NCBI GenBank assembly: GCA_045643185.1
Contig: JAZUKH010000280.1
Coordinates: 1,448 to 65,447 of the forward strand
Reading direction: 5' to 3'
DNA: 64,000 bases
Origin: Myxococcota bacterium
GTDB taxonomy: Bacteria; Myxococcota_A; Bradymonadia; UBA4248
In this document: in pieces, positions 7,079 to 64,000 of the stretch
Numbering within the stretch: the first letter of the stretch is position 1
How the letters are laid out: each line of letters begins with the position of its first letter
The notes under the pieces: model-generated
What the model was told of the DNA's origin: nothing
Seen by the model: only the letters and a program-made list of their open reading frames with translations
Databases searched by the model: none
Position numbers and translations under genes: made by a program

Positions 7079-7091
7079 ACTCGTTTTGAAA

Positions 7092-10495: not shown

Positions 10496-10527
10496 ATTTC
10501 TACCTTTTGATCATTTTTAGTATCGCA

Positions 10528-30955: not shown

Positions 30956-31246
30956 TGAGAACCCCTGTATGAAACAGCGTCTGAAGGACGTGTTGTAAGG
31001 CGTAAGGACATAACATGGTATGAAAAAAGGCCCGCGATGCCGTAAGCCATCACGTTAAACGACCCTGCAAAGCAGGTGGGCCTCGGTATAGAGTCGGAAA
31101 GTATCCTGGACTAGCAGGCGCGCTCGCCGGATCTCTAGGGGATGAGTCCCAATGATTAACGCACAAGGGGTTTAGCATAAATCGGCGTTTCGCGAACACC
31201 GCAGGCTTTACGCGTTTATAACACGAACGAGCTCAATGGGGATAAA

Positions 31247-31280
31247 AAAAAAGCCTTCTGTGACCAGAAGGCTTTTATTT
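31247..31280. terminator. rho-independent terminator 3' of rplS
   Basis: AAAAAAAAAGCCTTCTGGTCACAGAAGGCTTTTATTTTT hairpin directly after the L19 stop. Confidence 0.6.
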
Positions 31281-35304: not shown

Positions 35305-35336
35305 TCTTCCATCAGCCTTTTTTTGGGATATGGCAG

Positions 35337-35443
35337 GGGAAAGCCTTCCCCTACGCGGCTATTTTTCACACAAAGGTGCGCAGCTCGCTACGCACCTTTG
35401 TGAAAAAATACGCCGCTACCCCTTCTCGCCTGCGGCGCGCCCC
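35337..35443. repeat. MITE/REP-like intergenic element, copy B
   Basis: GGGGAAAGCCTTCCCCTACGCGGCTAT ... internal palindrome TTTTCACACAAAGGTGCGCAGC/GCTACGCACCTTTGTGAAAAA ... ATACGCCGCTACCCCTTCTCGCCTGCGGCGCGCCC. Confidence 0.65.
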
Positions 35444-48265: not shown

Positions 48266-48440
48266 AAAACATTATGAATTAAGCACATTTAGCGCGGATA
48301 ATCAAAACTTCTATGGAACCCAACGGCGATTTTTTTCAAAACCGACCCTTTAAGCGTGGTAACGTTAAACGAATGCGGATCATTCCGCGATCTTGGCCAT
48401 CGCGATCCAGTTTTCGACCGTCATGGCACCTGGTCATGCC

Positions 48441-48500
48441 GAGGGGGTAGCGGCGTATTTCGCAACGCGAAATAGCCGCGTAGGGGGAGACTTCCCCCTC
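48441..48500. repeat. MITE/REP-like element, short copy C (inverted orientation)
   Basis: Reverse complement is GAGGGGGAAGTCTCCCCCTACGCGGCTAT-TTCGCGTTGCGAA-ATACGCCGCTACCCCCTC, the same termini as copies A, B and D with a minimal palindromic core. Confidence 0.65.
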
Positions 48501-48572: not shown

Positions 48573-48646
48573 CGGAGCATAGCGCAGCCTGGTAGCGCGC
48601 TTGCATGGGGTGCAAGAGGTCGCAGGTTCAAATCCTGTTGCTCCGA
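48573..48646 (+). tRNA. tRNA-Pro (anticodon GGG)
   Basis: Cloverleaf folds: acceptor CGGAGCA/TGCTCCG, D-arm GCGC-AGCCTGGTA-GCGC, anticodon arm CTTGC-ATGGGGT-GCAAG (G37), T-arm GCAGG-TTCAAAT-CCTGT, discriminator A. Confidence 0.85.
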
Positions 48647-48668
48647 TTTCCAACGAACGCACCGTCAC

Positions 48669-48742
48669 CGGAGCATAGCGCAGCCTGGTAGCGCGCTTGC
48701 ATGGGGTGCAAGAGGTCGCAGGTTCAAATCCTGTTGCTCCGA
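48669..48742 (+). tRNA. tRNA-Pro (anticodon GGG), identical tandem copy
   Basis: Exact duplicate of the first tRNA, 22 bp downstream. Followed by the terminator GCCCATCGCAAGATGGGCTTTTTTTT at 48779-48806. Confidence 0.85.
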
Positions 48743-48910: not shown

Positions 48911-49645
48911 ATGAAAATCGGTATTTTTTCGGACATTCACAGCAACTTAAACGCCCTAAAGGTCGTTCTGGACTTCTACCGCGACAATCCATGCGATGAA
49001 TATCTCTGCCTGGGTGACGTGGTCGGCTATGGGCCTCAACCCGATGAATGCTGTGACCTCGTCAAGAATTTTGCACGCCTCACCATTCTCGGCAATCACG
49101 ACGCCGCCGTCTGCGGACGCATGAACTACGAGTATTACTACGATGCCGCTCGCAACGTTCTCGATTACCATGCCCGCATCATCTCGCCCGATAACATGAC
49201 CTGGCTCTCCAATCTGCCCTACAAATTCGATCATGAGGCCGGATTTACGATCTGCCACGGTTCCCCCATCAATCCCGAAGAATTCAACTACGTTTTTTAC
49301 CTCGAACAGGCCATCCAGCTCCTTCCCTTTTACAATGAGCTCGCGCCGGTCACCTTTATCGGTCATTCCCATCTGACCAAATCCTTTGCCCTCACCCCCA
49401 CCGAGGCAACCGATATCACCGGAAACACGCTGCATTTCGAGGATGATAAAAAATACTTCGTCACCGTCGGCTCCGTCGGCCAGCCGCGCGACTATGACAA
49501 CCGCGCCTGTTGCACCATTTATGACACGGAAACCAAGACGCTGACGTATTATCGTCTTAACTACGATATCGAAGACACCGTCAAAAAACTCTTCGCAACC
49601 GAGATCACCTATAACTTCGGAAAACGCCTGTATCTCGGCATATAA
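48911..49645 (+). CDS. metallophosphoesterase (calcineurin-like, YfcE-type)
   Basis: 'IGIFSDIHSNLNAL', 'LCLGDVVGYGP', 'ILGNHD' are MPP motifs I-III. Confidence 0.8.
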   Translation: MKIGIFSDIHSNLNALKVVLDFYRDNPCDEYLCLGDVVGYGPQPDECCDLVKNFARLTILGNHDAAVCGRMNYEYYYDAARNVLDYHARIISPDNMTWLSNLPYKFDHEAGFTICHGSPINPEEFNYVFYLEQAIQLLPFYNELAPVTFIGHSHLTKSFALTPTEATDITGNTLHFEDDKKYFVTVGSVGQPRDYDNRACCTIYDTETKTLTYYRLNYDIEDTVKKLFATEITYNFGKRLYLGI

Positions 49646-49677
49646 GTCGGTTTTTCGATACAAGCTCGTGGGATCGT

Positions 49678-49849
49678 GAGGGGGAAGTCTCCCCCTACGC
49701 GGCTATTTGGAATTTCTGTAGTAGACCACGCGTCAGAGACGTGTAGACCACGCGTCAGAGACGTGTAGACCACGCGTCAGAGACGTGTAGACCACGCGTC
49801 TCTACAGAAATACCAAATACGCCGCTACCCCTTCGCCTGGCAGGGGCCC
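49678..49849. repeat. MITE/REP-like element, copy D, carrying an internal 22-bp tandem array
   Basis: Same termini as A, B and C. Core is TTGGAATTTCTGTAG + (TAGACCACGCGTCAGAGACGTG)x3 + TAGACCACGCGTCTCTACAGAAATACCAA. Confidence 0.7.
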
Positions 49850-49854
49850 AGGAT

Positions 49855-49925
49855 GTTTTGTCTGGTCAGAAACTCAAAATCTCAGCCGTAGCGACGACGA
49901 AAACAAACAGGCTGAGATAATAACC
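49855..49925. ncRNA. conserved hairpin element (copy 1 of 2); candidate small RNA or regulatory stem-loop
   Basis: TTTGTCTGGTCAGAAACTCAAAATCTCAGCC-[22 nt]-GGCTGAGAT is about 80% identical to 52375-52445. The 9-bp stem is conserved. Confidence 0.3.
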
Positions 49926-50038
49926 TGTACTCTTAATGGTTGCCGTGCAAGCTTGCATGAAGGCGCGAAATGTGAGAAACTGGCGCGCCTAAGGATGGTT
50001 GAATCCAGCTAATATTGTTGCATGGATTTGGAGGAAAG

Positions 50039-51061
50039 ATGTTTTCGAGGAGATCAATAACTTCATTTCTGTTGAGCACCACACTGCTGATGGGACTCAG
50101 CGCCACAGCCCACGCCCAGGACATGGAAGACTTCAAGGCGCGCATGGCTCAAGCTTCAGAAATGACAAAGAGCAACATGAGTGAAGCCCTTCGTCTGTAC
50201 CTGGAGACGCGCATTCAATATGCCGGTCCCGAGATCGACTATTCGTTAGGCCGCACCTATCAGCGCTTGTACCAGTGCAGCCAAGCGCAACAATATTATA
50301 TTCAGGTCATGGTAAACTACGACCTTGGCCCCGATAACCCGATCTATTCGCGCGCCGTATCGGACTACGACACGATCGCTGACTGCGAAAGCTGGCAGCA
50401 GGTGACGATCAGCTGCACCAAAGCCTCCGATGATATCCTGTCGATCGACGACCAAAAAATGACCGAATGTTGGGATCGCCCGTATTCGCTGCCAGATGGC
50501 GAACATGAGATCAAACTGATCAGCGCAAAAGGTCCCGAAAAATCACTCAAATTCACCGCCAAAGCAGGTTCGGCACCTCAACACCTCGAAATTGCCTTCC
50601 CGCTCGCGGATGAGGAAGAGAAAACGCCTACCCTCGAACAGTGCGCAGCCATCATTCCACGCACCAAGATCGTCGAATACAAAGAGCGTTTCAACCCCTA
50701 TCTTTACTGGGGTCTGATCGCAGGCGGACTTGCCTTTGTTGCCGGCGGCGCGGGTTTTGGCGCCTGGGCGAATTCGGCACTCGTCGATGTTCAAAAATAT
50801 GACGACATGTACATCATCACCAACGATCTGAAAGCCAAATCCAAAGCCGATGATGCGCGTGACACCGTCAAAGTCGCCAACGCCCTCATGTATTCCGCCA
50901 TCGGCATCGGTGGTGCCGCAGCCATTACGGGCGCAACACTCGCCATTCTTAGCGCGATCAGCCCCAAAGTTGCTGTCGAAACCTATCAGCAAAACGACGT
51001 CAGCGCCTTCGTTGCCCCATCCAACGAAGGACTTATGCTCGGTCTGGGCATGACCTTCTAA
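50039..51061 (+). CDS. exported protein with PEGA-like domain and C-terminal TM helices
   Basis: GGAGGA RBS then ATG at 50039. Signal peptide '...LMGLSATAHA'. 'ILSIDDQKMTEC...PDGEHEIKL' is PEGA-like. Gly/Ala-rich hydrophobic C-terminal helices. Confidence 0.55.
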   Translation: MFSRRSITSFLLSTTLLMGLSATAHAQDMEDFKARMAQASEMTKSNMSEALRLYLETRIQYAGPEIDYSLGRTYQRLYQCSQAQQYYIQVMVNYDLGPDNPIYSRAVSDYDTIADCESWQQVTISCTKASDDILSIDDQKMTECWDRPYSLPDGEHEIKLISAKGPEKSLKFTAKAGSAPQHLEIAFPLADEEEKTPTLEQCAAIIPRTKIVEYKERFNPYLYWGLIAGGLAFVAGGAGFGAWANSALVDVQKYDDMYIITNDLKAKSKADDARDTVKVANALMYSAIGIGGAAAITGATLAILSAISPKVAVETYQQNDVSAFVAPSNEGLMLGLGMTF

Positions 51062-51333
51062 ACGCACTGGGGTCAAAATACCTCATTTTGCCCCGGCAAT
51101 CATGGCGGATGTTGCACTTGTCCCCATGACCAACTTGTCTCATTCATCAAGACAATGCCACAGACAAGTGAGCGCTCAGTGACAAACTCCCCATCCCATC
51201 AAATGGTCAGGAAAAATCGACGGACGTTGCTAAAAGCGATATACGCGGAACAAAATTTGCATTAAAACTTACAGTTTAGCGTGATTGTGTAACGATTACT
51301 TTACTGAATCAACACCACTAGAGAGGTAACAAC

Positions 51334-52191
51334 ATGCCAGAATGGAATCAGTTTTTCAAAAACATTGGTGACGTTTACCAGGGTCGTACGGCTGAAACCC
51401 GTCTTCAGGGCTGCATGATTGCCCGCGTTGTGGATAACGTCGACCCCTTTGATCAGCACCGCGTCCGCATCTCCTACCCGTCGTTGGCCGACCAATATAC
51501 CAAAGATACATCGTCCAACGGTGAAGATGCCAAGATCCAAAGCCCGTGGGTCCGTATCGCAAATTTGATGGCAGGCGATGATTTCGGTAGCCTCTGGCTC
51601 CCTGAAATCGATGACGAAGTCCTCGTCGCTTTCGAAGATGGTGATATGGCTCACCCCTACATCGTCGGAAGCCTCTGGAACGGTGGCGATAGACTCGTCC
51701 CCAAAACCATGACCTATACCCCCGACCAGATCGAAGTCGAACTCTCCAATAACGCTCAGGGCGGTAAAAATGATTATCGACTCATCCGATCCCGTATGGG
51801 CCACCACATCGCCTTCATCGATAAAGAAGGAAAAGGTGGTATCTCCCTCCGCTCCAAAAAATCCGCTGAACTCTACATCGATGACGAAGATGGTAAAGAA
51901 CGTATTCGCCTCTACGATAAAGACCAAAAACAATGGCTCGAAATCGATACCGTGAATAAGAAAATTACCCTCGAAACCGATACCGGCGATATCCTCATTA
52001 AGGCCGCTGAAAAAATTCGTCTCGAATGCAAAAACCTCGAAGTCGATGCCAGCGACTCCATCACCGTCGATGCCGGCACATCCATCAAAACGACCTGCCA
52101 GACCCTCAATGCCAAAGCAAGCTCCAGCATGGATGTTAACGGCGGTACCAAGATCAAGATGAGCGCTACGCGCATCGATCTTAACCCGTAA
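51334..52191 (+). CDS. phage baseplate assembly protein V / gp5-VgrG-like spike (Phage_base_V OB-fold plus beta-helix tail)
   Basis: 'RVVDNVDPFDQHRVRISYPSL...SPWVRIANLMAGDDFGSLWLPEIDDEVLVAFEDGDMAHPYIVGSLWNG' matches the gpV/gp5 N-domain. C-terminal 'KKITLETDTGDILIKAAEKIRLECKNLEVDA...' repetitive beta-strand region. Confidence 0.7.
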   Translation: MPEWNQFFKNIGDVYQGRTAETRLQGCMIARVVDNVDPFDQHRVRISYPSLADQYTKDTSSNGEDAKIQSPWVRIANLMAGDDFGSLWLPEIDDEVLVAFEDGDMAHPYIVGSLWNGGDRLVPKTMTYTPDQIEVELSNNAQGGKNDYRLIRSRMGHHIAFIDKEGKGGISLRSKKSAELYIDDEDGKERIRLYDKDQKQWLEIDTVNKKITLETDTGDILIKAAEKIRLECKNLEVDASDSITVDAGTSIKTTCQTLNAKASSSMDVNGGTKIKMSATRIDLNP

Positions 52192-52210
52192 TTCAATCCC
52201 AAACCTTCAA

Positions 52211-52240
52211 AAAGCCGCTCCCAAGAGCGGCTTTTTTTGT
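52211..52240 (+). terminator. rho-independent terminator of gpV-like gene
   Basis: AAAGCCGCTC-CCAAGA-GCGGCTTTTTTTGT. Confidence 0.7.
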
Positions 52241-52374
52241 GCTTAACGACACCGTTGAACGATCCAGACACGTTCCCGGCAAAAGATCTGACGACACTGC
52301 GCGACAACTATACGCATTCGTCAACGTTTTGCTACACGACTCGTTCAAAACAAGTTACGACTCACCCAAGAATG

Positions 52375-52445
52375 CTTTGTCTGGTCGAAAAAAATCTCAG
52401 CCGTAGCGAAGCCGAAGGCAAGCAGGCCGAGATTGGGGCGAGTGG
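52375..52445. ncRNA. conserved hairpin element (copy 2 of 2)
   Basis: CTTTGTCTGGTCGAAAAAAATCTCAGCC-[22 nt]-GGCCGAGAT. See copy 1 at 49855. Confidence 0.3.
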
Positions 52446-52508
52446 AGACGTGAGGGGCGAGCGTCTCCACGGGTTCGAAGCCGAAGACAAGTTCGCAAGC
52501 ACCCAAAA

Positions 52509-52584
52509 ACAACAAAGGCCGCTCTCGAAGAGCGGCCTTTGTTGTTCATGCCTCTATGATCTCGGGGCGCTAAGCCCCGGGATC
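52509..52584 (-). terminator. two stacked hairpins 3' of the giant gene
   Basis: AACAAAGGCCGCTCTCGAAGAGCGGCCTTTGTT and GATCTCGGGGCGCTAAGCCCCGGGATC. The second recurs 3' of the paralog (at about 63536-63565). Confidence 0.55.
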
Positions 52585-52595
52585 AGAATGACCGG

Positions 52596-55500
52596 TTAGT
52601 ACACGTTGAACTGACAGGATTCGTTGCAACTACTCACCTTGGGATCGCGGAAGTCGCAGGCTTCGTCGCCGTTCTTGATGCCATCGCCGCAGTAGGCCGC
52701 GCGCGTACAGTTGGTATTGCAACCGCCGTAAGCGCCCGTGTTGCCGTCCGTACCATTGTCACATTCTTCGCCAGCGTCGACATGACCGTCGCCGCAGAAG
52801 GCATTGAGCTTACACTTGGTCGAGCAACCGCCATAAGCGTCGTCATTGTTATTCGCGCCGTTATCGCAGGCTTCTTCGGAATCAAGCACACCGTCACCGC
52901 AGAAGTGTTCTAAGCCAGAACACGTAGCGTTACAACCGTTATAGCGGCCTGAGCCGTTGGCATCGCCATCGTCACAGACTTCTTTCGGACCATCGACCGT
53001 CGAATCGTCGTACTGAACGATGCCATCGCCGCAACGCGGACCAAGCGTACAGTCTGTACGGCAACCATTGTAAAGGGCGTTGCTGTTGTTTTCGCCATTA
53101 TCGCAGATCTCGGGATGATCAGCGTCACCGTTGAGTATGCCGTCACCGCAATAGGCGTTGAGCGTACAGCTTGTGGAGCAGCCGCCATAGAGGTTATCTT
53201 CGTTGGCTGCGCCCTTATCACAATATTCCGGATGATCTTCATCACCGTTGACACGACCGTCACCGCAGTAAGCCGCGAGTCGGCAGTTCTTCTTGCAGCC
53301 GCCATAAGCGTCGCTGAAGTTGCCCGTGCCGGGGTCGCAGGTCTCACCAGCTTCAGTGTCGATGTTTTTATCACCGCAGTAAGGTGCGCGCGTGCAGTCG
53401 GCGTTACAGGAGCCATAGACACCCGTATTGCCTTCCGTGCCGTAGTCGCATTCTTCCGGATGATCCGCATCACCGTTCTTCATGCCATCACCGCAGTAGG
53501 GGCCGAGCTGGCAAGTCGAACGACAGCCGTTGTAGGCACCCGTGTTGCCGTTAGGATCGTCGCAGACTTCATTGTCAGTATCGACAACGCCGTCGCCGCA
53601 GTAGGCCGCGAGTTGGCAATCCTTCGTGCAACCACCGTATTCGTTGTTGTTGTCATCGCCATAGTCGCAAGCTTCGGGGTGATCTGCGTCGCCATTCTTT
53701 ATGCCGTCACCGCAGAAGGCCGCGAGCGTGCAGTTGGCTTTACAACCGCCGTAGGCGCCCGTGTTACCAGCAGGATCGTCGCATTCTTCGTCGCCGTTCT
53801 TGATGCCGTCGCCGCAGAACTGGACGTAGCCGGAGCAATCGGCGTTGCAACCGTCGTAGACGTCGGCGCCATTGTGTTCGCCATCGTCACAGACTTCGTC
53901 GCCGTTCTTGATGCCGTCACCGCAGTAGGCCGCGCGCGTACAGTTGGCTTTGCAGCCGCCGTAGGCGCCCGTGTTACCAGCAGGATCGTCGCATTCTTCG
54001 TTCACCGGGTCGAGAACGCCATCACCACAGACATTGGCTTTCGTACAGTCGGACTTGCAGCCGTTGTACGAATTATCATTGAATTCAACGCCGAAGTCAC
54101 AGGCTTCGTCGCCATTCTTGATGCCATCGCCGCAGTAAGCCGCGAGCGTACAATTGGCTTTACAACCACCATAAGCGCCCGTGTTGCCAGCAGGATCGTC
54201 GCATTCTTCGTCGCCGTTCTTGATGCCGTCGCCGCAGAACTGGACGTAACCCGAGCAATCCGAGTTACAACCGTTGTAAATGTCCTGACCATTCGTCGCG
54301 CCGTCATCACAGACTTCGGAGCCATTACGAATGCCGTCACCGCAGTAAGCCGCGAGCGTACAGTTGGCTTTGCAACCACCGTAGGCACCCGTGTTGCCTG
54401 CCGTGCCGTCATCACAAGCTTCGTCGCCGTTCTTGATGCCGTCGCCGCAGAACTGAACGTAACCCGAGCAATCCGAGTTACAACCATTATAGATATTCGA
54501 ACCGTTCGAAGCGCCATCATCACAGACTTCGGAACCATTACGGATGCCGTCGCCGCAGCGAGGTCCGAGCACGCAAGCTTTGGTGCAGCCATTGTACGCG
54601 GTGTTGCTGTTCTCAGCGCCGTTATCGCAGTCTTCGTCGCCATTCTTGGTGCCATCGCCGCAATAAGGACCGAGCTTACAAGTCGCATCGCAACCATCGT
54701 ATTCGCCCTTATTGTTTGCCGTGCCGTCGTCACACTGTTCGGAGCCGTTCTTGATGCCGTCGCCGCAGTAGGCGTTCAACATACAGAGCGTGGAGCAACC
54801 GCCATAGACGCCGTCAACGTTCGAGGAACCAAGGTCGCACTCTTCGTCGCCGTTCTTGTCGCCATCACCGCAGTACGGGCCAAGCTGGCAAGTAGACGTA
54901 CAACCATCGTAAGCACCCGTGTTGTTTGCCGTGCCGTTATCGCAGACTTCGTGACCTTCATCGACGATACCATCACCGCAATACGAAGCGAGCGTACAAT
55001 CTTGGTTGCAACCGTTGTATTCGCCCTTATTGTTTGACGTGCCGTTATCACACTGTTCGTTGCCGTTCTTGGTGCCGTCACCGCAGAAGGCGTTGAGTTT
55101 GCACTTGGTCGAGCAACCACCGTAGACACCGTCTTCGTTGGCTTTGCCATAGTCGCAGTCTTCGCCAGCGTCTTTGACGCCGTCGCCGCAACGCGGTGCG
55201 AACGTACAGTCAGCATTACAACCGTTATACGAACCGTCGTTGACGCCATCGTCACACTGTTCCTTGCCGTTCACCTTGCCGTCGCCGCAATACAACGCTT
55301 TGCCCGAGCAATCGGCATTACAGCTGTTGTCGCCATAAGCATCGTTGCTGTTACGAGCGCCGTTATCGCAGACTTCGTGGCCAGCATCGATGTTGCCATC
55401 GCCGCAACGCGGAGCCTTGCGACAAGTCGTCAAGCAACCGTCAGAGCCATAAGCTGAGTCGCTGTTCGACGCGCCGTTATCGCATTGTTCTTTGCCATTG

Positions 55501-58500
55501 ACCTTGCCGTCGCCGCAACGCGGAGCCAACTTACAAGCGTCGGTACAAGCACCTTCGCCATAAGCGGACGCCTTGTTATCCGCGCCGTTATCGCACTGCT
55601 CGCCGTTAAGCGAATCGATCTCGCCATCACCGCAGAACGGAGCGAGTTCACACTTGTCGTTACAAAGACCTTTACCGTAGTTATCGGCTTTGTTCTGGTC
55701 TTTACCATCGTCGCAAGCTTCACCCTTGCTTTCCGCAACTTCGCCATCACCGCAAACCGCGTACTGGCAATTGGACGTACAGCTATCGCCGTTGGCCGCA
55801 CCATCATCGCATTGTTCACCCATCGCCGTGTCGACGACGCCGTCGCCACAGACCATGTATTTACAAGTCGTCTGGTTGCAGTTAACCGGCCAGGAACCGT
55901 CTGCATTCTTATCGCACTGTTCGCCAGCATCAACGCTACCGTTGCCGCACAACGTGCCGCCACCTGTACAGGTCGATTTGCCCGTCTTGAGGAAGCCGTC
56001 CAACGTCAACTTATACATTGAACCCTGGTCACAACGTTCCGTCTGGAAGAAGTGAAGTTCATAGATACCGTCTTCATAGATGTCATATCTCGGATCGCAG
56101 ACCATATCGTCGAACGTTTCACCATCGAGCGTACAACGCTGATTCGAAAGCGTGTTATCAGCCTGATCACCACCGCGCAAACCACCAAGGTCGACGAACT
56201 GCTTACGGTTAATGAACGCCCAAACGTCGTCATCACCCGTGAAATCGAGTTTTTCGCCACCCTTGTACTGGAAGAACGTATGGAGTTCTGACGAGAAGTT
56301 ACCGAACGTACGAACAGAACCTCTACCTTCTTTGCCATCATCATAACCAACTTTTTGAAGCGGATAGAAGTGCGCCTGAATATAGTCATGATCTTCTACG
56401 ATGGCCATATCCGAACCGTCGTAATTCTTGGCACAGACTCTCGTTCCATTGATCGTCTTACACGGATTGGCAGCATCGAACACGTATTTCGCACCCGAAT
56501 CGCCCTCTCTGAACAAGCGGAGCGTCGTGTCGAATTTCTTGTTCAAGCCTGAAAGCTCGCGATACCAATAGTAGAACGTACCCGGACAGGTAACCTGGTC
56601 GGTAATATAGTATTGGCCGTTATCCTTCGCACCGCATGCTTTCGAACCCCAGTTCGAAACGAGAACCGGTTTGCCATCGGCATCAAGTTCGTTCTCGACC
56701 ATACCGGTACAACCTTTGTTGACGGTCCAGTCGATGTTGCCATTGTGTGTTGCAGGCTTGTTACGCTGATAGTACGGACCACAACCAAAATCGGGGAAGC
56801 CGTAACCAACGTACCAATCGTTGTACGACATATCGATGGCGTTCGAATACGTGTAGGGGATCTCGTCGGAATACGTGAAATTCACTGTTCTTATATAAGT
56901 ATTCGATGAGTAACACGTAGTCCCCTTTGTATTGCAACATTGAGCACCATTCGAAGTCTTAAAGTTCTGATAATTTGTTTTTCTACACTCATAACACTGA
57001 TCATTATATTCATTACCAGTGCTGCATGTACGCTTTGAATAGCACTTACCGCCATTCTCGTACCCGCTACATGACCTGTTCGAATAGCACGTACCATCAA
57101 TGTAATAGCCACTACAGGTCAACAAGTTCGTACAAGCATTACTGACGGAATAGAACTCACCCAACAAGGCAGTGGTCATCCAACCATCGCCAGTACCGTG
57201 ACTCTGAGTTGCGCGGAAGTCGTAGTACGAAATGTCGATATCGACGTATGGATCGGACTTCATGCTTGCGAAGTCGGTGCAATCGAAGCCGGGTTCGACT
57301 TCACACTGGCTTGAGCAACCGTCACCCGAGACCATGTTACCATCGTCGCACGCTTCGGCCGGAACGAATTTGCCATTGGGGCATTCTTCTTTCGTCGCAG
57401 CGGTCGTGCCGCCTTCACACATGACGAGGCCGTTGTTATCACGTTTCGGGATCATCCACAGCGTGATGCCATCGCCACATTTCGGCGTATACGTCGCTTT
57501 GCCCGTGTCATCGTCGATGTATTCATCGAACATGACTTCGCGTTTGCAACTGGGCGAACAACCGTCGTTAGGATAGTGGTTACCGTCATCGCATTCTTCA
57601 CCGATGTCGAGGATACCGTCACGGCATTTACCTTTAACGGCATGACCGTCTTCATCGACGTGATAATTGCTTTCGAGTTTACACGCATCGCAGCCGTCGT
57701 TGGCAGCATCGTTACCATCGTCGCATTCCTCGGCGAGTTGGTATTTGACGCCATCCAATTCAACGACTTTGTCGATAACGCCGTTACCGCAGTAGACGGA
57801 GCTGTCGATTTCAGCAGCAGGTGAACATTCACCGCCGTTTTCAGGACAAGCGTAGTGTGTTTCGATCTCGCAATTTTCGTTGCAGCCATCGCCACTCGTC
57901 GTATTGCCATCGTCACAGGCTTCGCCGTACTGAACGATGCCGTCACCGCAGTAACCCTTGGTGGCACTGCACACGGTTTTTTCGTTCATTGTATAGGTAC
58001 AAGCGTAACCCTCTTCACGCTGGCAACGAGCCGAACAGCCATCGCCGTCGTTGTTGTTACCATCGTCACAGGCTTCACCCCAAGCGCGGATACCGTCGCC
58101 GCAGGCCGCCGCAACGCAGTGTTCGCCTTCATTCGGGCAGATGTAACCCGGTTCGATCTGGCCTTCGTAACAGCCATCGCCTTTATCCGTGTTGTGATCA
58201 TCGCATTTTTCGAAGTCATGCTGAACGATGCCATCGCCGTAGAGGTCGGAGATCGGACGACACCAAACGTTTTCAGCGTCATCGCGAGAGTCAGCCGTAC
58301 AAGCCTGACCGTTCGTCGGAATCGTGCCGGATGCGCAGCAGTATTCGACGGGGCAGCGTTTTGTGCTGGCGGAATAACCCTGGCACATATAGCCGGAGAC
58401 AGGCTGACAAGCGTTGGTGCACATCGTCGTTCCGTCGACCGTAGGATCGCAAACTTCGCTTGCATCACGCTGGTTGTTACCGCAAGCATCTCGGTAACAT

Positions 58501-61500
58501 CCCGAGTCATCACACATGTACTTGGGCTGAATGATGCAGTTCTTGCAGCCATCGATATCGGCGCCAAAGTCGCATTCTTCATCGCCATTGATGACGCCAT
58601 CGCCGCAACGATCCGCGAGCGTACAATCCGATTTACAACCGCCGTAGGCGCCCGTGTTGTAAGCTTCGCCATCGTCACAAACTTCGGGATGCGACGCATC
58701 ACCGTTCACGATGCCATCGCCGCAGTAAGCATTCTTGATGCACTTGCTGGAGCAGCCATCATAGACGCCATCCGCATTGGCAGAACCGTTATCACATTCT
58801 TCGCCTTCCGTCGTGTCGACGTTGCCGTCGCCGCAGTAGGACGCAAGCGTACAATCCGATTTACAACCGCCATAAAGGCCGTCATTGTAACCATCATCAC
58901 ACGCTTCCTTGCCCTCTTCGACGATGCCATCGCCGCAGAAGCGGTCGATCTTACAAGCGCTGTTGCACTTGTTGTAGCCGCCGACGTTCTGGTCAGCGTC
59001 ATCGCATTGTTCGCCGGCATTGGTATCGGTATGACCATCGCCGCAACGGGGTCCAAGCTGACAACTGGTCGTACAGCCGCCATAGACGGTGTCATTGTTA
59101 TTGACGCCGTTATCACAGACTTCAGAACCGTTGACTTTGCCATCACCGCAATAGGTGTTGGGACCGGAGCATTTAGCATTACAAGAATCGGCGCCATAAC
59201 CAGTGCCGTTCGACGCGCCGTTATCACAGACTTCGTCGCCATTCTTAATGCCGTCACCGCACCACGGGCCCCACTTGCATTCGCTGGTGCAGCTCGAGTG
59301 TTCGGCGAGTTTGTAAAGACCGGTGTTCTTGGCCGAACCAAAGTCGCAATCTTCGCCCGGGTCGACGTTGCCGTCACCGCACGAAGCGTTCACACCGGAG
59401 CAGTTGGCGTTACAGGAATCAGCGCCGTAACCGGTGCCGTTCGACGCGCCGTTATCGCAGACTTCGCTGCCGTTCTTGACGCCATCGCCGCAATACGGAC
59501 CGATTTCGCACTTCGTCGTGCAGGAACCTTCGCCGTAAGCTGCGTCGCTGTTAGCCGAGCCGTTATCACAGGCTTCGCTGCCATTTTTAACGCCGTCGCC
59601 GCAACGCGGACCAAGTTCGCAACTGGTCGTGCAGCCGTTGTAGGCGCTGTCATTGTTGGCCGAGCCGTTATCACAGGCTTCATCGCCATTCTGAGTGCCG
59701 TCACCGCACCAGCTGTTAGCCCCAGAACACGTCGCGTTACACGAATCCAGACCGTAGCCGGAACCGTTACGCGCGCCGTTATCACATTTTTCGCTGGCAT
59801 CCACGACGCCGTCGCCGCACTTGTGAGCAACGCCCGAACAACTCGCGTTACAGCTGTCGTCGCCGTAAGCATCGTCGCTGTTAGCCGCGCCGTTATCGCA
59901 AACTTCACCAGCCGACGCGTCGACGTTACCGTCGCCGCAGTAGCGAGCTACGCCCGAACAATCCGCTTTGCAGCTGTCGAGACCGTAGGCCGTGTCGCTG
60001 TTCAAACGCACGCCGTTATCGCAGACTTCGCCCTGATCGGCCTGAACCACGCCGTCACCGCAATAGAACGCCAAACCTGAACACGTCGAGTTACAGCTAT
60101 CCTCGCCATAGGCGGTGTCGCTGTTTTTCGCACCGTTATCACATTTTTCTTTGCCTGCATCGGCTTTGTCATCACCGCAGTGCGGACCGAGCTGACACTT
60201 GGTCGTGCAGCCATTGTAAGCCGTATCGCTGTTCGATTTACCGTTATCACAGACTTCCGGATGATCGGCATCGCCATTCACTTCACCGTCGCCGCAATAC
60301 GCAGCCTTCGTGCAGTCCGCATTGCAGCCGCCATAGGCACCCGTGTTCTTGTCTTTGCCAAGGTCGCATTCTTCGCGGCCATTGACGATGCCGTCACCGC
60401 AATACGCCGAGACGGTGCAATCCGAATTACAACCGGTGCCGTCCGCAACGTATTTGCCGTTATTACCACGCGTGCCAAGGTCGCACGCTTCATTGGCGTC
60501 GACCACGCCGTCACCGCAATACGAGGCGAGCTGACATTCGACCGTGCAACCGCCATAGGCGCCCGTGTTGAGCGAAGCACCAGAAGCGTCGACGCCAAGG
60601 TCGCATTTTTCGTAAGGCGCCGTGACGACGCCATCACCGCAGTACGCAACGCGTTGACAATGCGTGTCGCAACCGTCGATGCCATAAGCGCGGTCGTTGT
60701 TGCCCGGACCGTTATCACAGGCTTCGTTGTACGCCGCGTCGACCACGCCGTCGCCGCATTTGGGCGTCGCCGTACAGTCGGGATTACACGTGCCATACGC
60801 GCCCGTGTTGCCTGCATCGCCAAGGTCGCATTCTTCACCCGAACCCGGATCGACATAACCGTTACCGCAACGACCAGGCAGCGTACATGCCGGCGTACAC
60901 GTGCCATATTCACCCGTGTTGCCGTCTTCGCCGAGGTCGCATTCTTCTTTCTGATCGGCATCGACTTTGCCGTCGCCGCAACGTGAAGACAACGTACAGT
61001 CGGTGTTACACGTGCCATCAGTGCCCGAGTTGTTTTCTTTGCCAAGGTCGCATTCTTCGGCGCCGTTCTGTTCACCGTCGCCGCAGTAAGGCGCGACCGT
61101 ACAGTCGGCGTTACAACCCGTACCATCGGCCACATACGCGCCGTTGTTCTTGGCTGAACCGTTATCGCAGAGTTCGTCGCCATTGACCTCACCGTCGCCG
61201 CAGTAAAATTCTGCGCCAGAGCAGTCATCTTTACAACCGGCATCAGAACCGTCACCGACCTTGCTGTAACCGCCCACGTTGAGCGAAGCAAGCGTTGACT
61301 TATCAACGCCAAGGTCGCACTTTTCATTGCCGTTCAAAATACCGTCACCGCAGTATTCAGCGAGCGATCGGCAGTCGGCATTACAATGCCCGTACGTGCC
61401 CGGACCACCCGTCAATTCGCCAGTTCCCGGGTTAAGGTAACCTTCGTCGCAGACTTCAGCGCCCGGCGTCACAACACCGTCACCGCAGAACGGCATTTTC

Positions 61501-62894
61501 GTGGTGCAATCATTGGAACAGCCGCCGTATTCGCCGTTGTTGATTCCGTCGTCGCAGGCTTCCTTGAGCACGGCCCCCGTGTCAGGGTCAATTCCGATCT
61601 CGTCGATCTTGCCGTTACCGCAATACGCATCAGCGTGTTTACAGTTGGCCGAGCAGTGACCATAACCGCCTTCGCCGCCCGACGGGATCTTGTTACCCGC
61701 TTCATCGGTCGTCCAAAGCATCGGCTTACCATCGGCGTCCAACTTGCCATCGTCGCATTCTTCGCCCGGATCCGGGTTACCGTCACCGCAAAAGCCCGTC
61801 CACTGGCAGCTGTAGCAGTTCGCGGCGCCGCGGCTGACATCCCAGCCGTAGTCAGGCTGATCCGTATTTTTCGAAATGGGACCATAGTCGCAGTCTTCGC
61901 CACCTGCAGCATCGACGACTTCATCGCCGCAGCCTTTCGGCAAACACGACGTGTAGCCGCTCGACGTCGTCGAACACGTCCACCCTTCTTCGAGCGTACA
62001 CGTGTCAGAGCACCCGTCACCGGCCGAGGTATTACCGTCGTCGCATTCTTCCTTACCCGCCACAATGCGGTCACCGCAACGCGTCACGCAACCATCTTTC
62101 GTGCATTTCCAGCCTTTTTCGACCTTGCACTCGACCGAGCAGCCGTCGCCGTTGATCCCGTTGCCATCATCGCACTGTTCGTCCGACGTCAACAGGCCGT
62201 TACCGCAGATCTTTTCGTAAGCCGTGTCGCAGAGTTCGCCGGGGATCGGGCAAACATAGCCTTCTTCCAGCTGACATTCAGAGGAACAGCCATCGCCGCT
62301 ATCCACGTTACCATCGTCGCACTGCTCAGAGCCGACGATGATACCGTCGCTACAAATCTCTTTGCAGCCGTCGTCGCCGCATTTCCAGCCATTTTCGATC
62401 GTGCAACGCGCCGAACAGCCGTCGCCGTCCAAGGTATTACCGTCGTCGCAGCGCTCGTTGTCAGCTTTCACGCCGTCACCACACGTGTTTTTCGCAACGT
62501 GTTTAGAACAGGCACCACCGTTTTTCGGACAATCATACCCGTCTTCGATGGCCTTACAGTTAGCAAGGCAACCGTCGCCGGAATTTGTATTGCCGTCGTC
62601 ACAGGCTTCGCCATCCTCGATCGTGCCGTTGCCGCAGGTCTCCGCGCTCTCTTCCATCGAGCAAACCGTGCCATCGCACTTCCACCCCGCTTCGAGCTGG
62701 CACGCCGACGAACAACCATCGTTGCTCGCCGTGTTCCCGTCGTCGCAGGACTCGCCGACGTTAAGAACGCCATCACCACACACGCCGCCTTCCACAGGTT
62801 CATTCCCGTGTTTGCCACCGTTGTCGTGACTGCAACCTAACAGGCCGCATGCACCACAAAGACACATCGCCCATATCCAGGTTTGGGTTCTCAT
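52596..62894 (-). CDS. giant (3432 aa) secreted cysteine-rich repeat lipoprotein: about 60 TIGR02232-type 'Myxococcus cysteine-rich repeats' flanking a central fibro-slime/PA14-like region
   Basis: Start ATG complement of 62892-62894 after an AGGAGGA RBS. Lipobox 'LLGCSHD'. Repeats 'CGDG..NG.EECDDGN...GDGCS..C'. Central about 450 aa lack repeats and contain 'FTGDDDVWAFINRKQFVDLGGL' (fibro-slime/PA14-like motif). Antisense ORFs are rejected. Confidence 0.85.
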   Translation of the reverse strand: MRTQTWIWAMCLCGACGLLGCSHDNGGKHGNEPVEGGVCGDGVLNVGESCDDGNTASNDGCSSACQLEAGWKCDGTVCSMEESAETCGNGTIEDGEACDDGNTNSGDGCLANCKAIEDGYDCPKNGGACSKHVAKNTCGDGVKADNERCDDGNTLDGDGCSARCTIENGWKCGDDGCKEICSDGIIVGSEQCDDGNVDSGDGCSSECQLEEGYVCPIPGELCDTAYEKICGNGLLTSDEQCDDGNGINGDGCSVECKVEKGWKCTKDGCVTRCGDRIVAGKEECDDGNTSAGDGCSDTCTLEEGWTCSTTSSGYTSCLPKGCGDEVVDAAGGEDCDYGPISKNTDQPDYGWDVSRGAANCYSCQWTGFCGDGNPDPGEECDDGKLDADGKPMLWTTDEAGNKIPSGGEGGYGHCSANCKHADAYCGNGKIDEIGIDPDTGAVLKEACDDGINNGEYGGCSNDCTTKMPFCGDGVVTPGAEVCDEGYLNPGTGELTGGPGTYGHCNADCRSLAEYCGDGILNGNEKCDLGVDKSTLASLNVGGYSKVGDGSDAGCKDDCSGAEFYCGDGEVNGDELCDNGSAKNNGAYVADGTGCNADCTVAPYCGDGEQNGAEECDLGKENNSGTDGTCNTDCTLSSRCGDGKVDADQKEECDLGEDGNTGEYGTCTPACTLPGRCGNGYVDPGSGEECDLGDAGNTGAYGTCNPDCTATPKCGDGVVDAAYNEACDNGPGNNDRAYGIDGCDTHCQRVAYCGDGVVTAPYEKCDLGVDASGASLNTGAYGGCTVECQLASYCGDGVVDANEACDLGTRGNNGKYVADGTGCNSDCTVSAYCGDGIVNGREECDLGKDKNTGAYGGCNADCTKAAYCGDGEVNGDADHPEVCDNGKSNSDTAYNGCTTKCQLGPHCGDDKADAGKEKCDNGAKNSDTAYGEDSCNSTCSGLAFYCGDGVVQADQGEVCDNGVRLNSDTAYGLDSCKADCSGVARYCGDGNVDASAGEVCDNGAANSDDAYGDDSCNASCSGVAHKCGDGVVDASEKCDNGARNGSGYGLDSCNATCSGANSWCGDGTQNGDEACDNGSANNDSAYNGCTTSCELGPRCGDGVKNGSEACDNGSANSDAAYGEGSCTTKCEIGPYCGDGVKNGSEVCDNGASNGTGYGADSCNANCSGVNASCGDGNVDPGEDCDFGSAKNTGLYKLAEHSSCTSECKWGPWCGDGIKNGDEVCDNGASNGTGYGADSCNAKCSGPNTYCGDGKVNGSEVCDNGVNNNDTVYGGCTTSCQLGPRCGDGHTDTNAGEQCDDADQNVGGYNKCNSACKIDRFCGDGIVEEGKEACDDGYNDGLYGGCKSDCTLASYCGDGNVDTTEGEECDNGSANADGVYDGCSSKCIKNAYCGDGIVNGDASHPEVCDDGEAYNTGAYGGCKSDCTLADRCGDGVINGDEECDFGADIDGCKNCIIQPKYMCDDSGCYRDACGNNQRDASEVCDPTVDGTTMCTNACQPVSGYMCQGYSASTKRCPVEYCCASGTIPTNGQACTADSRDDAENVWCRPISDLYGDGIVQHDFEKCDDHNTDKGDGCYEGQIEPGYICPNEGEHCVAAACGDGIRAWGEACDDGNNNDGDGCSARCQREEGYACTYTMNEKTVCSATKGYCGDGIVQYGEACDDGNTTSGDGCNENCEIETHYACPENGGECSPAAEIDSSVYCGNGVIDKVVELDGVKYQLAEECDDGNDAANDGCDACKLESNYHVDEDGHAVKGKCRDGILDIGEECDDGNHYPNDGCSPSCKREVMFDEYIDDDTGKATYTPKCGDGITLWMIPKRDNNGLVMCEGGTTAATKEECPNGKFVPAEACDDGNMVSGDGCSSQCEVEPGFDCTDFASMKSDPYVDIDISYYDFRATQSHGTGDGWMTTALLGEFYSVSNACTNLLTCSGYYIDGTCYSNRSCSGYENGGKCYSKRTCSTGNEYNDQCYECRKTNYQNFKTSNGAQCCNTKGTTCYSSNTYIRTVNFTYSDEIPYTYSNAIDMSYNDWYVGYGFPDFGCGPYYQRNKPATHNGNIDWTVNKGCTGMVENELDADGKPVLVSNWGSKACGAKDNGQYYITDQVTCPGTFYYWYRELSGLNKKFDTTLRLFREGDSGAKYVFDAANPCKTINGTRVCAKNYDGSDMAIVEDHDYIQAHFYPLQKVGYDDGKEGRGSVRTFGNFSSELHTFFQYKGGEKLDFTGDDDVWAFINRKQFVDLGGLRGGDQADNTLSNQRCTLDGETFDDMVCDPRYDIYEDGIYELHFFQTERCDQGSMYKLTLDGFLKTGKSTCTGGGTLCGNGSVDAGEQCDKNADGSWPVNCNQTTCKYMVCGDGVVDTAMGEQCDDGAANGDSCTSNCQYAVCGDGEVAESKGEACDDGKDQNKADNYGKGLCNDKCELAPFCGDGEIDSLNGEQCDNGADNKASAYGEGACTDACKLAPRCGDGKVNGKEQCDNGASNSDSAYGSDGCLTTCRKAPRCGDGNIDAGHEVCDNGARNSNDAYGDNSCNADCSGKALYCGDGKVNGKEQCDDGVNDGSYNGCNADCTFAPRCGDGVKDAGEDCDYGKANEDGVYGGCSTKCKLNAFCGDGTKNGNEQCDNGTSNNKGEYNGCNQDCTLASYCGDGIVDEGHEVCDNGTANNTGAYDGCTSTCQLGPYCGDGDKNGDEECDLGSSNVDGVYGGCSTLCMLNAYCGDGIKNGSEQCDDGTANNKGEYDGCDATCKLGPYCGDGTKNGDEDCDNGAENSNTAYNGCTKACVLGPRCGDGIRNGSEVCDDGASNGSNIYNGCNSDCSGYVQFCGDGIKNGDEACDDGTAGNTGAYGGCKANCTLAAYCGDGIRNGSEVCDDGATNGQDIYNGCNSDCSGYVQFCGDGIKNGDEECDDPAGNTGAYGGCKANCTLAAYCGDGIKNGDEACDFGVEFNDNSYNGCKSDCTKANVCGDGVLDPVNEECDDPAGNTGAYGGCKANCTRAAYCGDGIKNGDEVCDDGEHNGADVYDGCNADCSGYVQFCGDGIKNGDEECDDPAGNTGAYGGCKANCTLAAFCGDGIKNGDADHPEACDYGDDNNNEYGGCTKDCQLAAYCGDGVVDTDNEVCDDPNGNTGAYNGCRSTCQLGPYCGDGMKNGDADHPEECDYGTEGNTGVYGSCNADCTRAPYCGDKNIDTEAGETCDPGTGNFSDAYGGCKKNCRLAAYCGDGRVNGDEDHPEYCDKGAANEDNLYGGCSTSCTLNAYCGDGILNGDADHPEICDNGENNSNALYNGCRTDCTLGPRCGDGIVQYDDSTVDGPKEVCDDGDANGSGRYNGCNATCSGLEHFCGDGVLDSEEACDNGANNNDDAYGGCSTKCKLNAFCGDGHVDAGEECDNGTDGNTGAYGGCNTNCTRAAYCGDGIKNGDEACDFRDPKVSSCNESCQFNVY

Positions 62895-63123
62895 ATTTCC
62901 TCCTATCACAAACAAAATTGTTTGTGCTCGTTTCGGATCCGCGCCCCCTATGGGCGCTATATACACAAATACACTATATTATATGCAATGCACGCTTCAA
63001 CTTCAACGACTAAGCACGCATTTTGACCATGGTTAGCCCAATTGCCTATTATTTTAGGCGCGGCTATTTCATACGCCGCGCCCGCGTCGCTTCTCCCTCG
63101 CTTGAGCCGCCCGTACCGGACGG

Positions 63124-63440: not shown

Positions 63441-63574
63441 AATAAATAATAATTTTTATCAAAGCATGACAATATGTTTATTTTTCAATGACATACACAG
63501 AGTACAAAAAAAGGCCGCACGGATTAGGTGCGGCCTTGAGGCTCGGAGCTAAGCCCCGAGATCAGAATGAACGG

Positions 63575-64000
63575 TTAGTACACGTTGAACTGACAGGATT
63601 CGCTGCAACCACTCGCCTTTGGATCGCGGAAGTCGCAGGCTTCGTCGCCGTTCTTGATGCCATCGCCGCAGTAGGCAGCGCGCGTGCAGTTGGTATTGCA
63701 ACCGCCGTAAGCGCCCGTGTTTGCCGCCGCGCCATCGTCGCATTCCTCGCCGTTGTCCGTGTCGATACGACCGTCACCGCAGTAGGAAGCGAGCGTGCAG
63801 TTGACATTACAGCCGCCGTAACCACCGACGTTGTTGTCAGCGCCGAGGTCGCAGGCTTCTTCCGGATCGAGCGTACCGTCGCCGCAACGACGACCGAGCT
63901 GACAATTTGCCGTACAGCCGTTGTAGGCATCCGTGCCGTTGGCTGAGCCCTTGTCACAGACTTCGCCTTCGTCGGCCTGAATGACCCCGTCACCGCAGCG
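63575..64000 (-). CDS. C-terminal part of a second cysteine-rich repeat protein (tandem paralog of the giant gene; continues beyond window)
   Basis: The last about 150 nt (63575-63730) are nearly identical to 52596-52750, including C-terminal '...CNESCQFNVY*' and the downstream hairpin. The track ORF 63562..63993 is in the wrong frame. Confidence 0.75.
   Translation of the reverse strand, partial: RCGDGVIQADEGEVCDKGSANGTDAYNGCTANCQLGRRCGDGTLDPEEACDLGADNNVGGYGGCNVNCTLASYCGDGRIDTDNGEECDDGAAANTGAYGGCNTNCTRAAYCGDGIKNGDEACDFRDPKASGCSESCQFNVY

Follow-up and report, generated by a model that had tools for sequence, protein, structure and literature searches.

A two-copy intergenic stem-loop repeat bordering a PEGA-like/gpV gene pair in a Bradymonadales-like bacterium, with a possible minus-strand terminator anatomy

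The window analysed here is the whole 64,000-nucleotide stretch of contig JAZUKH010000280.1 from a Myxococcota bacterium. Two neighbouring genes on its plus strand form the setting of this study. The first (50039–51061) encodes a secreted-looking protein of 340 aa, referred to as PEGA-like, which has no Pfam match at E ≤ 0.01, and the second (51334–52191) encodes a gpV/VgrG-type spike protein of 285 aa (Phage_base_V, E 7e-20). Both are syntenic in relatives. A conserved promoter-like motif, TTGCATG-N11-TGTGAGAAACT, precedes the PEGA-like gene (49953–49983, plus strand), and the gpV-like gene is followed by a canonical plus-strand terminator with a 12-bp stem, a 4-nt loop and T7 (52209–52236). 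A strong bidirectional terminator (52508–52546; 18-bp stem, −30 kcal/mol) stands behind a convergent giant DUF4215 gene of 3456 aa on the minus strand (52596–62966). A Pfam search of the main ORFs from 34 to 64 kb gave matches for ClpX, Era, Der, an FHA protein, PNP, a radical SAM protein, DUF364, a metallophosphoesterase, Phage_base_V and DUF4215.

The spacers on either side of the gene pair contain direct copies, in plus-strand orientation, of one short sequence. BLAST aligned 49847–49918 with 52366–52433 at 82% identity over 72 columns, including a 4-nt gap (E 2.9e-13), and a repeat search of the window gave 86% identity for the hairpin portion (49876–49918 and 52391–52433). The sequence TTTGTCTGGTC, common to both copies, has two exact matches in the window, and AAATCTCAGCCGTAGCGA, also common to both, has two against 0.08 expected. 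A covariance model built on the pair (R1) scored copy 1 at 101 bits and copy 2 at 92 bits. The preliminary description of this DNA, which reported a hairpin element present twice with shared blocks, was thus borne out, and its extent was revised: the spans given there were 49855–49925 and 52375–52445, while the similarity stops at 49918 and 52433 and begins about 8 nt earlier. Copy 1 was placed at 49851–49918 and copy 2 at 52370–52433, neither being assigned a strand; the BLAST similarity starts at 49847 for copy 1, overlapping the last bases of a MITE-like repeat, and at 52366 for copy 2. The MITE-like structured repeat, its copy D (49673–49850, also unstranded; 22-nt × 3.6 tandem core), has its right end at 49850, as set by its other copies, and touches copy 1, as had been described. 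Two tRNA-Pro genes (48573–48742) are located 1.1 kb upstream.

Each copy is made up of a U-rich 5′ box, a variable A-rich spacer, a 9-bp stem and a 22-nt loop. In copy 1 these are the box GATGTTTTGTCTGGTC (49853–49867), the spacer (49868–49878, 11 nt), the 5′ arm ATCTCAGCC (49879–49887), the loop (49888–49909) and the 3′ arm GGCTGAGAT (49910–49918). In copy 2 they are the box (52372–52386), the spacer (52387–52393, 7 nt), the 5′ arm (52394–52402), the loop (52403–52424, with an inner GCC/GGC mini-stem) and the 3′ arm GGCCGAGAT (52425–52433). The spacer between box and stem is 9 nt long in a strain variant, L001. Five of the nine stem pairs are G-C. By our own estimate, a perfect 9-bp stem with a loop of up to 30 nt arises in a random 70-mer with p ~0.005, and the hairpin is therefore regarded as a genuine feature of the repeat. 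The stem had been described as preserved in both copies. This holds for copy 1; in copy 2 a T-to-C substitution (49913 T, 52428 C) produces an A·C mismatch on the plus strand, and only on the minus strand, as G·U, is the pairing kept. We counted one substitution between the copies in the 18 stem positions and five in the 22 loop positions, a depletion in the stem that is not significant. A further local duplication of 16 nt was noticed inside and beside copy 2. Similarity to the repeat on the far side of the MITE-like insertion, in 49646–49672, was not significant (220/2000 shuffles).

The two copies differ by a 4-nt indel and the strains, which are 99.55% identical overall, by +2 nt; the other strain comes from ENA sample ERZ27247232. 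Such frame-breaking indels, between copies as well as between strains, show that the element is non-coding. A short ORF in copy 1 (MFCLVRNSKSQP up to its stop), the ORF 52237–52599 and an antisense ORF at 49933–50145 were considered and rejected, being indel-broken or overlapping real features. Candidate promoters within the element, picked out by eye (a TTGTCT −35, TGAGATAAT as an extended −10 in copy 1, and a sigma-54 GG/GC spacing), were likewise rejected, none being conserved between the copies. Reading of the sequence revealed no integron attC (R′/R″ cores), dif, parS or LexA-type motif.

The preliminary description had proposed a search for further copies. Neither BLAST nor model R1 with its filters off found a third copy in the 64 kb window, and no true match turned up in the collections searched. 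Rfam 15 had no match on the element, at the gathering threshold or at E ≤ 10; the only Rfam matches in 49600–52700 were sub-threshold and fell onto the two canonical terminators. Viral contigs searched with two patterns yielded 27 matches, all of them coding-sequence coincidences lacking the partner arm. An 18-mer gave seven chance matches in unrelated phyla among the GTDB representative genomes, none with a hairpin; the source genome was not among the matches. In JGI metagenomes the box-plus-stem pattern had no match and the stem-plus-loop pattern had seven. Three of the seven (L050–L052) carry 8/9 bases of the partner arm and an inverted ACCAGACA; they lie inside a 406-aa ORF and were therefore dismissed as chance. 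The other four, without a partner arm, were also rejected. BLAST against plasmid and phage collections returned nothing meaningful, and exact-protein look-ups with the PEGA-like and metallophosphoesterase proteins, made to find further strains, had nothing on record. When R1 was run on the loci of 14 relatives, the matches were marginal and none was significant. One of these, at 19212–19282 of L002, combines a box like that of the element with a 10-bp stem and a 22-nt loop (13.6 bits, E ~1, not significant); it is placed where a PP2C gene could be terminated. Another site in the same locus (8549–8575, AAAAAAAATCTCAGAAAGCGACG), upstream of the orthologous promoter-like motif, has a 13-nt seed with E 0.14 and was treated as chance.

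Two similar sequences in direct orientation around a segment that includes the gene of a phage-type spike protein, with tRNA-Pro genes nearby, recall attachment sites. Like attL/attR, or like the subterminal hairpin ends of IS200/IS605 elements, the copies are hairpin-bearing sequences in direct orientation around a gene cassette, and they might be products of the integration of the 2.5-kb PEGA-like/gpV cassette, or might permit its excision. The preliminary description had entertained such an attachment-site remnant and had asked whether the segment is missing in relatives. It is not: the pair, with a PEGA-like protein of about 330 aa, is syntenic in all relatives fetched (L002–L009 and L044–L048), and none of them carries the repeat. 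Among the gpV proteins available, the closest is 67% identical. The metallophosphoesterase gene is immediately upstream of the pair in these relatives as well, except in L006–L008. In L044 the spacer between the metallophosphoesterase and PEGA-like genes contains only a terminator and the promoter-like motif, and in L057 the interval from gpV to the next gene contains a terminator alone. The two corresponding sites of the closest relatives thus lack the repeat, and its copies are not the traces of an inserted gene pair.

Other properties of the locus also speak against recombination sites. The Pfam scan of ORFs from 34 to 64 kb of the window yielded no integrase, transposase, TnpA or TnpB, and the cargo between the hairpins, unlike that of IS200/IS605, consists of the PEGA-like and gpV-like genes only, with no tnpA or tnpB. 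The tRNA-Pro genes show no similarity to the repeat, nor is any tRNA-derived sequence present in it, and the viral collections hold no copies. The longest run identical between the copies is 19 nt, which is short for efficient RecA-dependent homologous exchange. With the cassette ancestral and syntenic in repeat-less relatives, the proposal of an attachment-site remnant was refuted, and we consider a recombination role for the copies extremely improbable. Two of the three outcomes that the preliminary description had named as speaking against it were observed, namely no further copies found in the searches and conserved synteny.

Stem-loop-containing intergenic repeat families are common in bacteria, and many of them are uncharacterised (PMC2267715). 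The element resembles REP/BIME, ERIC and the unnamed families of that paper in being about 70 nt long, intergenic, non-coding, stem-loop-forming, species-restricted and situated beside other small repeats. It differs from them in number, two copies being documented here in the 64 kb window against 9 to hundreds in those families. Unlike REP, it has no short G+C-rich palindrome, and no RAYT-type gene occurs among the scanned ORFs. The MITE-like repeat of the same genome (10522–10656, 35335–35432, 48440–48500 and 49673–49850) occupies similar spacers, one member being directly adjacent to copy 1, but the element shares with it neither sequence nor ends (the terminal sequences GGGGGAAGTCTCCCCC...CGCCGCTACCCC...GGGGCCCA are lacking) and has no terminal inverted repeats or target duplication. 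The earlier placing of the element outside the MITE family was therefore correct. The spacers of the Bradymonadales-like clade are already crowded with other small repeats.

When the two strands were compared, a coherent anatomy was seen on the minus strand only. There the hairpin is followed at once by TTTTGAGTTTCTG in copy 1, TTTTTTTCG in copy 2 and TTTTATTTCTG in L001. The T-rich tract of copy 1, TTTTGAGTTTC (49868–49878, minus strand), runs on as TG into the box, and that of copy 2 is TTTTTTT and then CG (52387–52393, minus strand), the L001 version being that given above. T-richness 3′ of the stem is thus retained in three versions although their sequence and length differ. The plus strand has no T-tract after the hairpin (AATAACC and TGGGGCG). 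The minus-strand hairpin energy is −13.1 kcal/mol for copy 1 and −17.8 kcal/mol for copy 2, compared with −14.6 kcal/mol for copy 2 on the plus strand. The fold z-score of the element is −2.1 on the minus strand versus −0.6 on the plus strand, and for 142 nt the values are −3.0 and −2.0, respectively.

These features are those of intrinsic (Rho-independent) terminators: a stable G+C-containing 9-bp stem (−13 to −18 kcal/mol) with a U-rich tract directly 3′ of it and, for copy 2, a position downstream of a minus-strand gene. The likeness is incomplete. Such terminators have a short loop (about 3–8 nt), and the canonical ones in the window and in relatives have loops of ~3–5 nt and G+C-rich stems of 9–18 bp, whereas both copies have a 22-nt loop. 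A window-wide scan for a 9-bp stem with a T-tract found ~20 distinct sites, mostly canonical short-loop hairpins; both copies were among the remainder. On the minus strand no gene lies upstream of copy 1, which has no co-directional gene. Copy 2, 163 nt beyond the stop of the DUF4215 gene, is downstream of the 52508–52546 terminator on the minus strand and redundant with it. At a paralogous minus-strand gene end (63575) the 3′ flank of the giant gene is shared, and no such element is present. Past the T-tract, ~17 conserved bases of the box are left without explanation by a terminator. The length of the loop and the location of copy 1 are unusual for a terminator, the stop ahead of copy 2 is far stronger (−30 kcal/mol), and with two copies only, conservation is inseparable from shared ancestry. 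Weighing these points, we assign a probability of roughly 40% to the reading that the element is a lineage-specific, low-copy intergenic stem-loop repeat whose only coherent anatomy is that of a minus-strand intrinsic terminator.

The preliminary description had also suggested a regulatory stem-loop. This reading stands only in altered form, the hairpin having terminator anatomy on the minus strand alone. On the plus strand, the promoter-like motif of the PEGA-like gene follows copy 1 at a distance of 35 nt, which places the copy outside that transcription unit, and copy 2 begins 134 nt past the gpV terminator, so that neither copy is within a flanking mRNA.

A small RNA, listed in the preliminary description as another possibility, was considered as well, in the form of an independent transcript of the plus strand. 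The U-rich box and the A-rich 3′ half of the loop could form an H-type pseudoknot, making the copies two small-RNA paralogues or a 5′ module; copy 2 would then be a ~170-nt small RNA reaching to the terminator at 52508–52546, and copy 1 a truncated duplicate. In copy 1 the box UGUUUU (49854–49859) can pair with AAAACA of the loop (49900–49905), and in copy 2 UGCUUU (52373–52378) with AAGGCA (52415–52420), with one double-sided change from U-A to C-G and one from U-A to U·G; a column-permutation control gave 221/5000 (p ~0.04). Several alternative registers of box/loop pairing exist, however, because the sequence complexity is low. Like paralogous small RNAs, the copies are similar non-coding hairpin units, and copy 2 lies in a 270-nt interval between two terminators, adjoining a perfect 9-bp hairpin (52442–52470). 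A weak promoter candidate, TTCAAA-N18-AAGAAT, was seen by eye to stop ~5 nt ahead of the box, but no sigma-70-like promoter emerged from a consensus scan, and the MITE-like repeat fills the position where a promoter of copy 1 would be. Moreover, the main stem of copy 2 carries the A·C mismatch on the plus strand, the U-tract is missing there, no plus-strand terminator separates copy 1 from the next gene, the fold z-scores are weak, the similarity covers 70 nt only and ends at the hairpin, and neither an Rfam family nor a homologue in relatives was found. A structured plus-strand RNA is accordingly rated improbable. Its more specific form, in which paralogous pseudoknotted RNAs specific to this gut/rumen Bradymonadales-like lineage would regulate or insulate an orphan contractile-injection spike gene pair at both borders, is rated lower still.

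The inverted repeat might instead be bound as DNA by a protein. Its 9-bp halves, 31 bp apart between half-site centres and preceded by an A-tract, would then be an operator or an upstream site at each border of the gene pair. The distance of copy 1 from the conserved TTGCA-N-TGTGAGA promoter-like motif of the PEGA-like gene, and the resemblance of the half-site CTGAGAT to the TGTGAGAT core of that motif, are consistent with this. Relatives, however, keep the motif and have no such inverted repeat, copy 2 is upstream of no gene and has one mutated half-site, and no regulator gene is adjacent. We regard a protein-binding site as quite improbable.

A stronger competitor of the minus-strand terminator is a functionless relic, that is, a short segment duplicated at two spacers, or a dead small repeat deposited there, which inherited its hairpin and T-tract and has no present role. 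Consistent with this, there are only two copies, conserved in no relative and located in fast-evolving spacers rich in other repeats; the 16-nt local duplication at copy 2, the substitutions not significantly fewer in the stem than in the loop, and the largely unremarkable fold z-scores point the same way. Against it, the 9-bp stem is retained, perfect or G·U-tolerant, despite 86% overall identity, the T-richness 3′ of the stem survives indels in three versions, and the box–loop pairing includes a possible compensatory change. The relic is somewhat doubtful, though clearly likelier than a plus-strand RNA.

On the reading preferred here, a stem-loop repeat of ~68–72 nt would have been gained at two spacer sites of this Bradymonadales-like genome after the split from the nearest sequenced relatives. 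Transcribed from the minus strand, its 9-bp G+C-containing stem, followed by the U-rich tract, would act as a putative factor-independent terminator. If functional, it would most likely halt transcription that runs leftward, as antisense or read-through, at each border of the plus-strand PEGA-like/gpV pair: copy 2 would provide a second stop past the giant convergent gene's own terminator, and copy 1 a stop for antisense transcription ahead of the upstream metallophosphoesterase gene.

For annotation, the two direct repeats flanking the PEGA-like/gpV pair give no evidence of horizontal insertion, and recognizing this averts a false mobile-cassette call. Beyond that their import is small: they add to the small stem-loop repeats with which the spacers of uncultured Bradymonadales-like genomes are crowded. 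Should the plus-strand pseudoknot be real, a little-studied lineage of predatory bacteria would have yielded a new motif of small RNA; should the minus-strand terminator be real, stray repeats would be able to supply insulating terminators.

The two copies of the element lie in direct orientation within 49600–52700 of the window, as units of about 70 nt. When 49847–49918 was compared with 52366–52433 by BLAST, they were found to be 82% identical over 72 columns, including a 4-nt gap (E 2.9e-13); in a repeat search, identity was 86% for the hairpin part and 81% for the 5′ part. The longest run identical in both copies is 19 nt. The parts of each copy are a box rich in U/T, G(G/A)ATG(T/C)TTTGTCTGGTC; a spacer that is A-rich and varies in length; the 9-nt first arm ATCTCAGCC; and a 22-nt loop with the second arm GGC(T/C)GAGAT after it. 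The block TTTGTCTGGTC has 2 exact matches in the 64 kb, and AAATCTCAGCCGTAGCGA, with up to 3 mismatches allowed, has 2 matches against 0.08 expected. It is clear that the repeat and its hairpin are both real. The likeness breaks off sharply past GAGAT; hence the coordinates in the preliminary description, which had recognized the repeat correctly, were about 8 nt too far right. Its claim that the stem is preserved holds for the minus strand, where the T-to-C change at 52428 in copy 2 gives a G.U pair, but not for the plus strand, where it gives an A.C mismatch. It may be noted that a 16-nt local direct repeat, CGAAGCCGAAG(G/A)CAAG, occurs within the loop of copy 2 (52407–52422) and again 69 nt downstream (52476–52491), with a perfect 9-bp hairpin (52442–52470) in between.

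Further copies were sought with R1, a covariance model derived from copies 1 and 2. With filters off, R1 detected no third copy in the 64-kb window, and it gave no significant match in any relative's locus. At neither the gathering threshold nor E ≤ 10 did Rfam 15 match the element; the nearby sub-threshold matches were only generic terminator look-alikes on the canonical terminators 52209–52236 and 52508–52546. Pattern scans of IMG/VR viral contigs returned nothing or demonstrable chance matches. Nothing beyond demonstrable chance matches came from pattern scans of GTDB representative genomes and JGI metagenomes, or from BLAST against plasmids and phages.

The neighbourhood of the element is ordinary chromosome. 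It encodes ClpX, Era, Der, an FHA coiled-coil protein, a radical SAM/LAM-like protein, PNP, DUF364, a tandem pair of identical tRNA-Pro(GGG) genes (48573–48646 and 48669–48742), a metallophosphoesterase, the PEGA-like protein (50039–51061), the gpV-like spike (Phage_base_V, E 7e-20) and a convergent 3456-aa DUF4215-repeat protein. Scanning the principal ORFs at 34–64 kb revealed no integrase or transposase. The earlier name 'PEGA' had as its sole basis a PDGEHEI-type motif seen by eye; the protein has no Pfam match at E ≤ 0.01, and none is on record for its orthologues. The gpV-like homologues belong to MAGs of gut or rumen origin, labelled Bradymonadales, Myxococcota or "Proteobacteria"; the closest is only 67% identical to the window protein. 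The last codons and 3′ flank of the DUF4215 gene (52566–52600), the flank comprising a small hairpin and a terminator, recur at 63545–63579, where another minus-strand gene, cut off by the window edge, ends; the two giant genes look like tandem paralogues with a common C-terminus (...QFNVY*). Elsewhere in the window, a 6S RNA gene lies at 31025–31210 on the minus strand, scoring 51.8 bits in Rfam against a gathering threshold of 46.4; just upstream of it is a bidirectional terminator (31250–31275).

One possibility raised earlier was that the copies bracket an inserted segment. This is wrong, as the bracketed gene pair is syntenic in relatives without the element. When synteny was checked, the order of the PEGA-like and gpV-like genes was kept in every relative fetched (loci L002–L009 and L044–L048), and in most of these the metallophosphoesterase gene is directly upstream. 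L044 (GCA_045599585.1) has the entire left-hand gene order of the window, and its metallophosphoesterase-to-PEGA-like spacer contains a canonical terminator and a promoter-like motif only, with no element. At the locus L057, whose gpV is at least 90% identical to that of L044, the gpV terminator comes next and the following gene begins 70 nt after it; here too the element is missing. Since the pair is syntenic and R1 finds nothing significant in the relatives' loci, the two genes are ancestral and both element copies were gained later.

Other differences were seen among these loci. In L044, the relative of closest synteny, the tRNA-Pro(GGG) pair (~3260–3440) is on the opposite strand from the window. 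The metallophosphoesterase gene has one orientation in the window and L044 and the reverse one in L002, L009, L045 and L047. These differing orientations suggest small local inversions around this spot. In one relative lineage, L006/L007 (11235–18276), the PEGA-like/gpV pair adjoins a baseplate cluster on the opposite strand (GPW_gp25, Baseplate_J, Tail_P2_I); in most of the other relatives, as in the window, housekeeping genes surround an orphan spike gene.

The strongly conserved motif TTGCAAG-N11-TGTGAGA(T/A) occurs once in the window (49953–49983). It is found 50–90 nt upstream of the PEGA-like gene there and in L002–L009 and L044–L046 (L002 8579–8603, L006 8760–8784, L009 8788–8812, L044 4546–4570, L045/L046 4650–4674), whose gpV-like proteins are 59–65% identical to the window's; the exact motif is absent from L047/L048. 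We infer a putative sigma-70-type promoter, with −35 TTGCAA, a 17-nt spacer and an extended −10 (TGn, GAWWNT), a reading supported by the canonical TTGACA-N17-TAAAAG that precedes the tRNA-Pro genes. In both the window and L044, a related TTGCA...TGTGT motif lies ahead of the gpV-like gene. Copy 1 ends 35 nt before the promoter-like motif and would therefore be outside the PEGA-like mRNA, and copy 2 starts 134 nt past the canonical gpV terminator. Neither is predicted to lie within a flanking gene's transcript on the plus strand. No consensus plus-strand promoter was found ahead of either copy, and the would-be promoter position of copy 1 is filled by a MITE-like repeat (right end 49850).

A T-rich tract directly follows the hairpin, read on the minus strand, in each of the three versions available: copy 1 (TTTTGAGTTTCTG), copy 2 (TTTTTTTCG) and the strain variant L001 (TTTTATTTCTG). 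The tracts differ from one another by indels. Over 1564 nt, L001 matches the window at 99.55% identity; it shows just two indels, and both are in the element spacer. The lone stem substitution is tolerated on the minus strand only, the hairpin of copy 2 folds more stably there (−17.8 versus −14.6 kcal/mol on the plus strand), and the fold z-scores are better. Because this was the only coherent functional anatomy found, we favour the element being a minus-strand intrinsic-terminator module riding on a small repeat. A scan of the window for a 9-bp stem plus T-tract gave about 20 distinct sites, mostly canonical short-loop hairpins, with both element copies among the rest. Several features, however, argue against this reading: the loop measures 22 nt, compared with ~3–5 nt in canonical terminators here and in relatives; on the minus strand there is no gene for copy 1 to terminate; copy 2 is preceded on that strand by an 18-bp terminator of −30 kcal/mol; the giant gene's 3′ flank recurs at the paralogous gene end (63575), but the element does not; and the conserved box lies beyond the T-tract. 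At best, the element would be a redundant terminator or insulator.

Alternatively, box–loop pairing in a plus-strand RNA could give a 6-bp pseudoknot helix. The box UGUUUU of copy 1 is able to pair with AAAACA in the loop, and the copy 2 counterparts, UGCUUU and AAGGCA, differ from these by a compensatory change on both sides of one pair and by a wobble change at another, so that, of the 8 substitutions lying outside the spacer, 3 keep the helix. A column-permutation control equalled this support in 221 of 5000 trials. As the covariation comes from two sequences only, in low-complexity segments with several alternative pairing registers, it is suggestive only. The two strand signals are at odds, the main-stem G.U pointing to the minus strand and the pseudoknot U.G to the plus strand.

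The MITE-like repeat occurs at 10522–10656, 35335–35432, 48440–48500 (minus strand) and 49673–49850 (copy D), with similar copies in L046 (~7060–7170) and L006 (~8490–8560). This family, with the sequence GGGGGAAGTCTCCCCC-TA-CGCGGC-TAT[variable hairpin]ATA-CGCCGC-TACCCCTTCGCCTGGC(A)GGGGCCCA, looks like a structured module and not a classical MITE; no obvious target duplication was seen, and no Rfam family matched at the gathering threshold. The variable core of copy D is a 22-nt × 3.6 tandem array. One such repeat explains a strain-level indel between L045 and L046.

When tested for membership, the element could be assigned neither to this local family nor to any Rfam family, conserved sRNA gene, att sites or IS200/IS605 ends. 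It fits the broad class of species-restricted, stem-loop-bearing intergenic repeats, with two copies as counted in the window only. Such families are well documented: a survey of 40 genomes described 92 stem-loop repeat families, 67 of them previously undescribed and mostly intergenic (PMC2267715). The element, known from its two copies in the window, is a further example, and its novelty is limited to that of one more member of a documented class.
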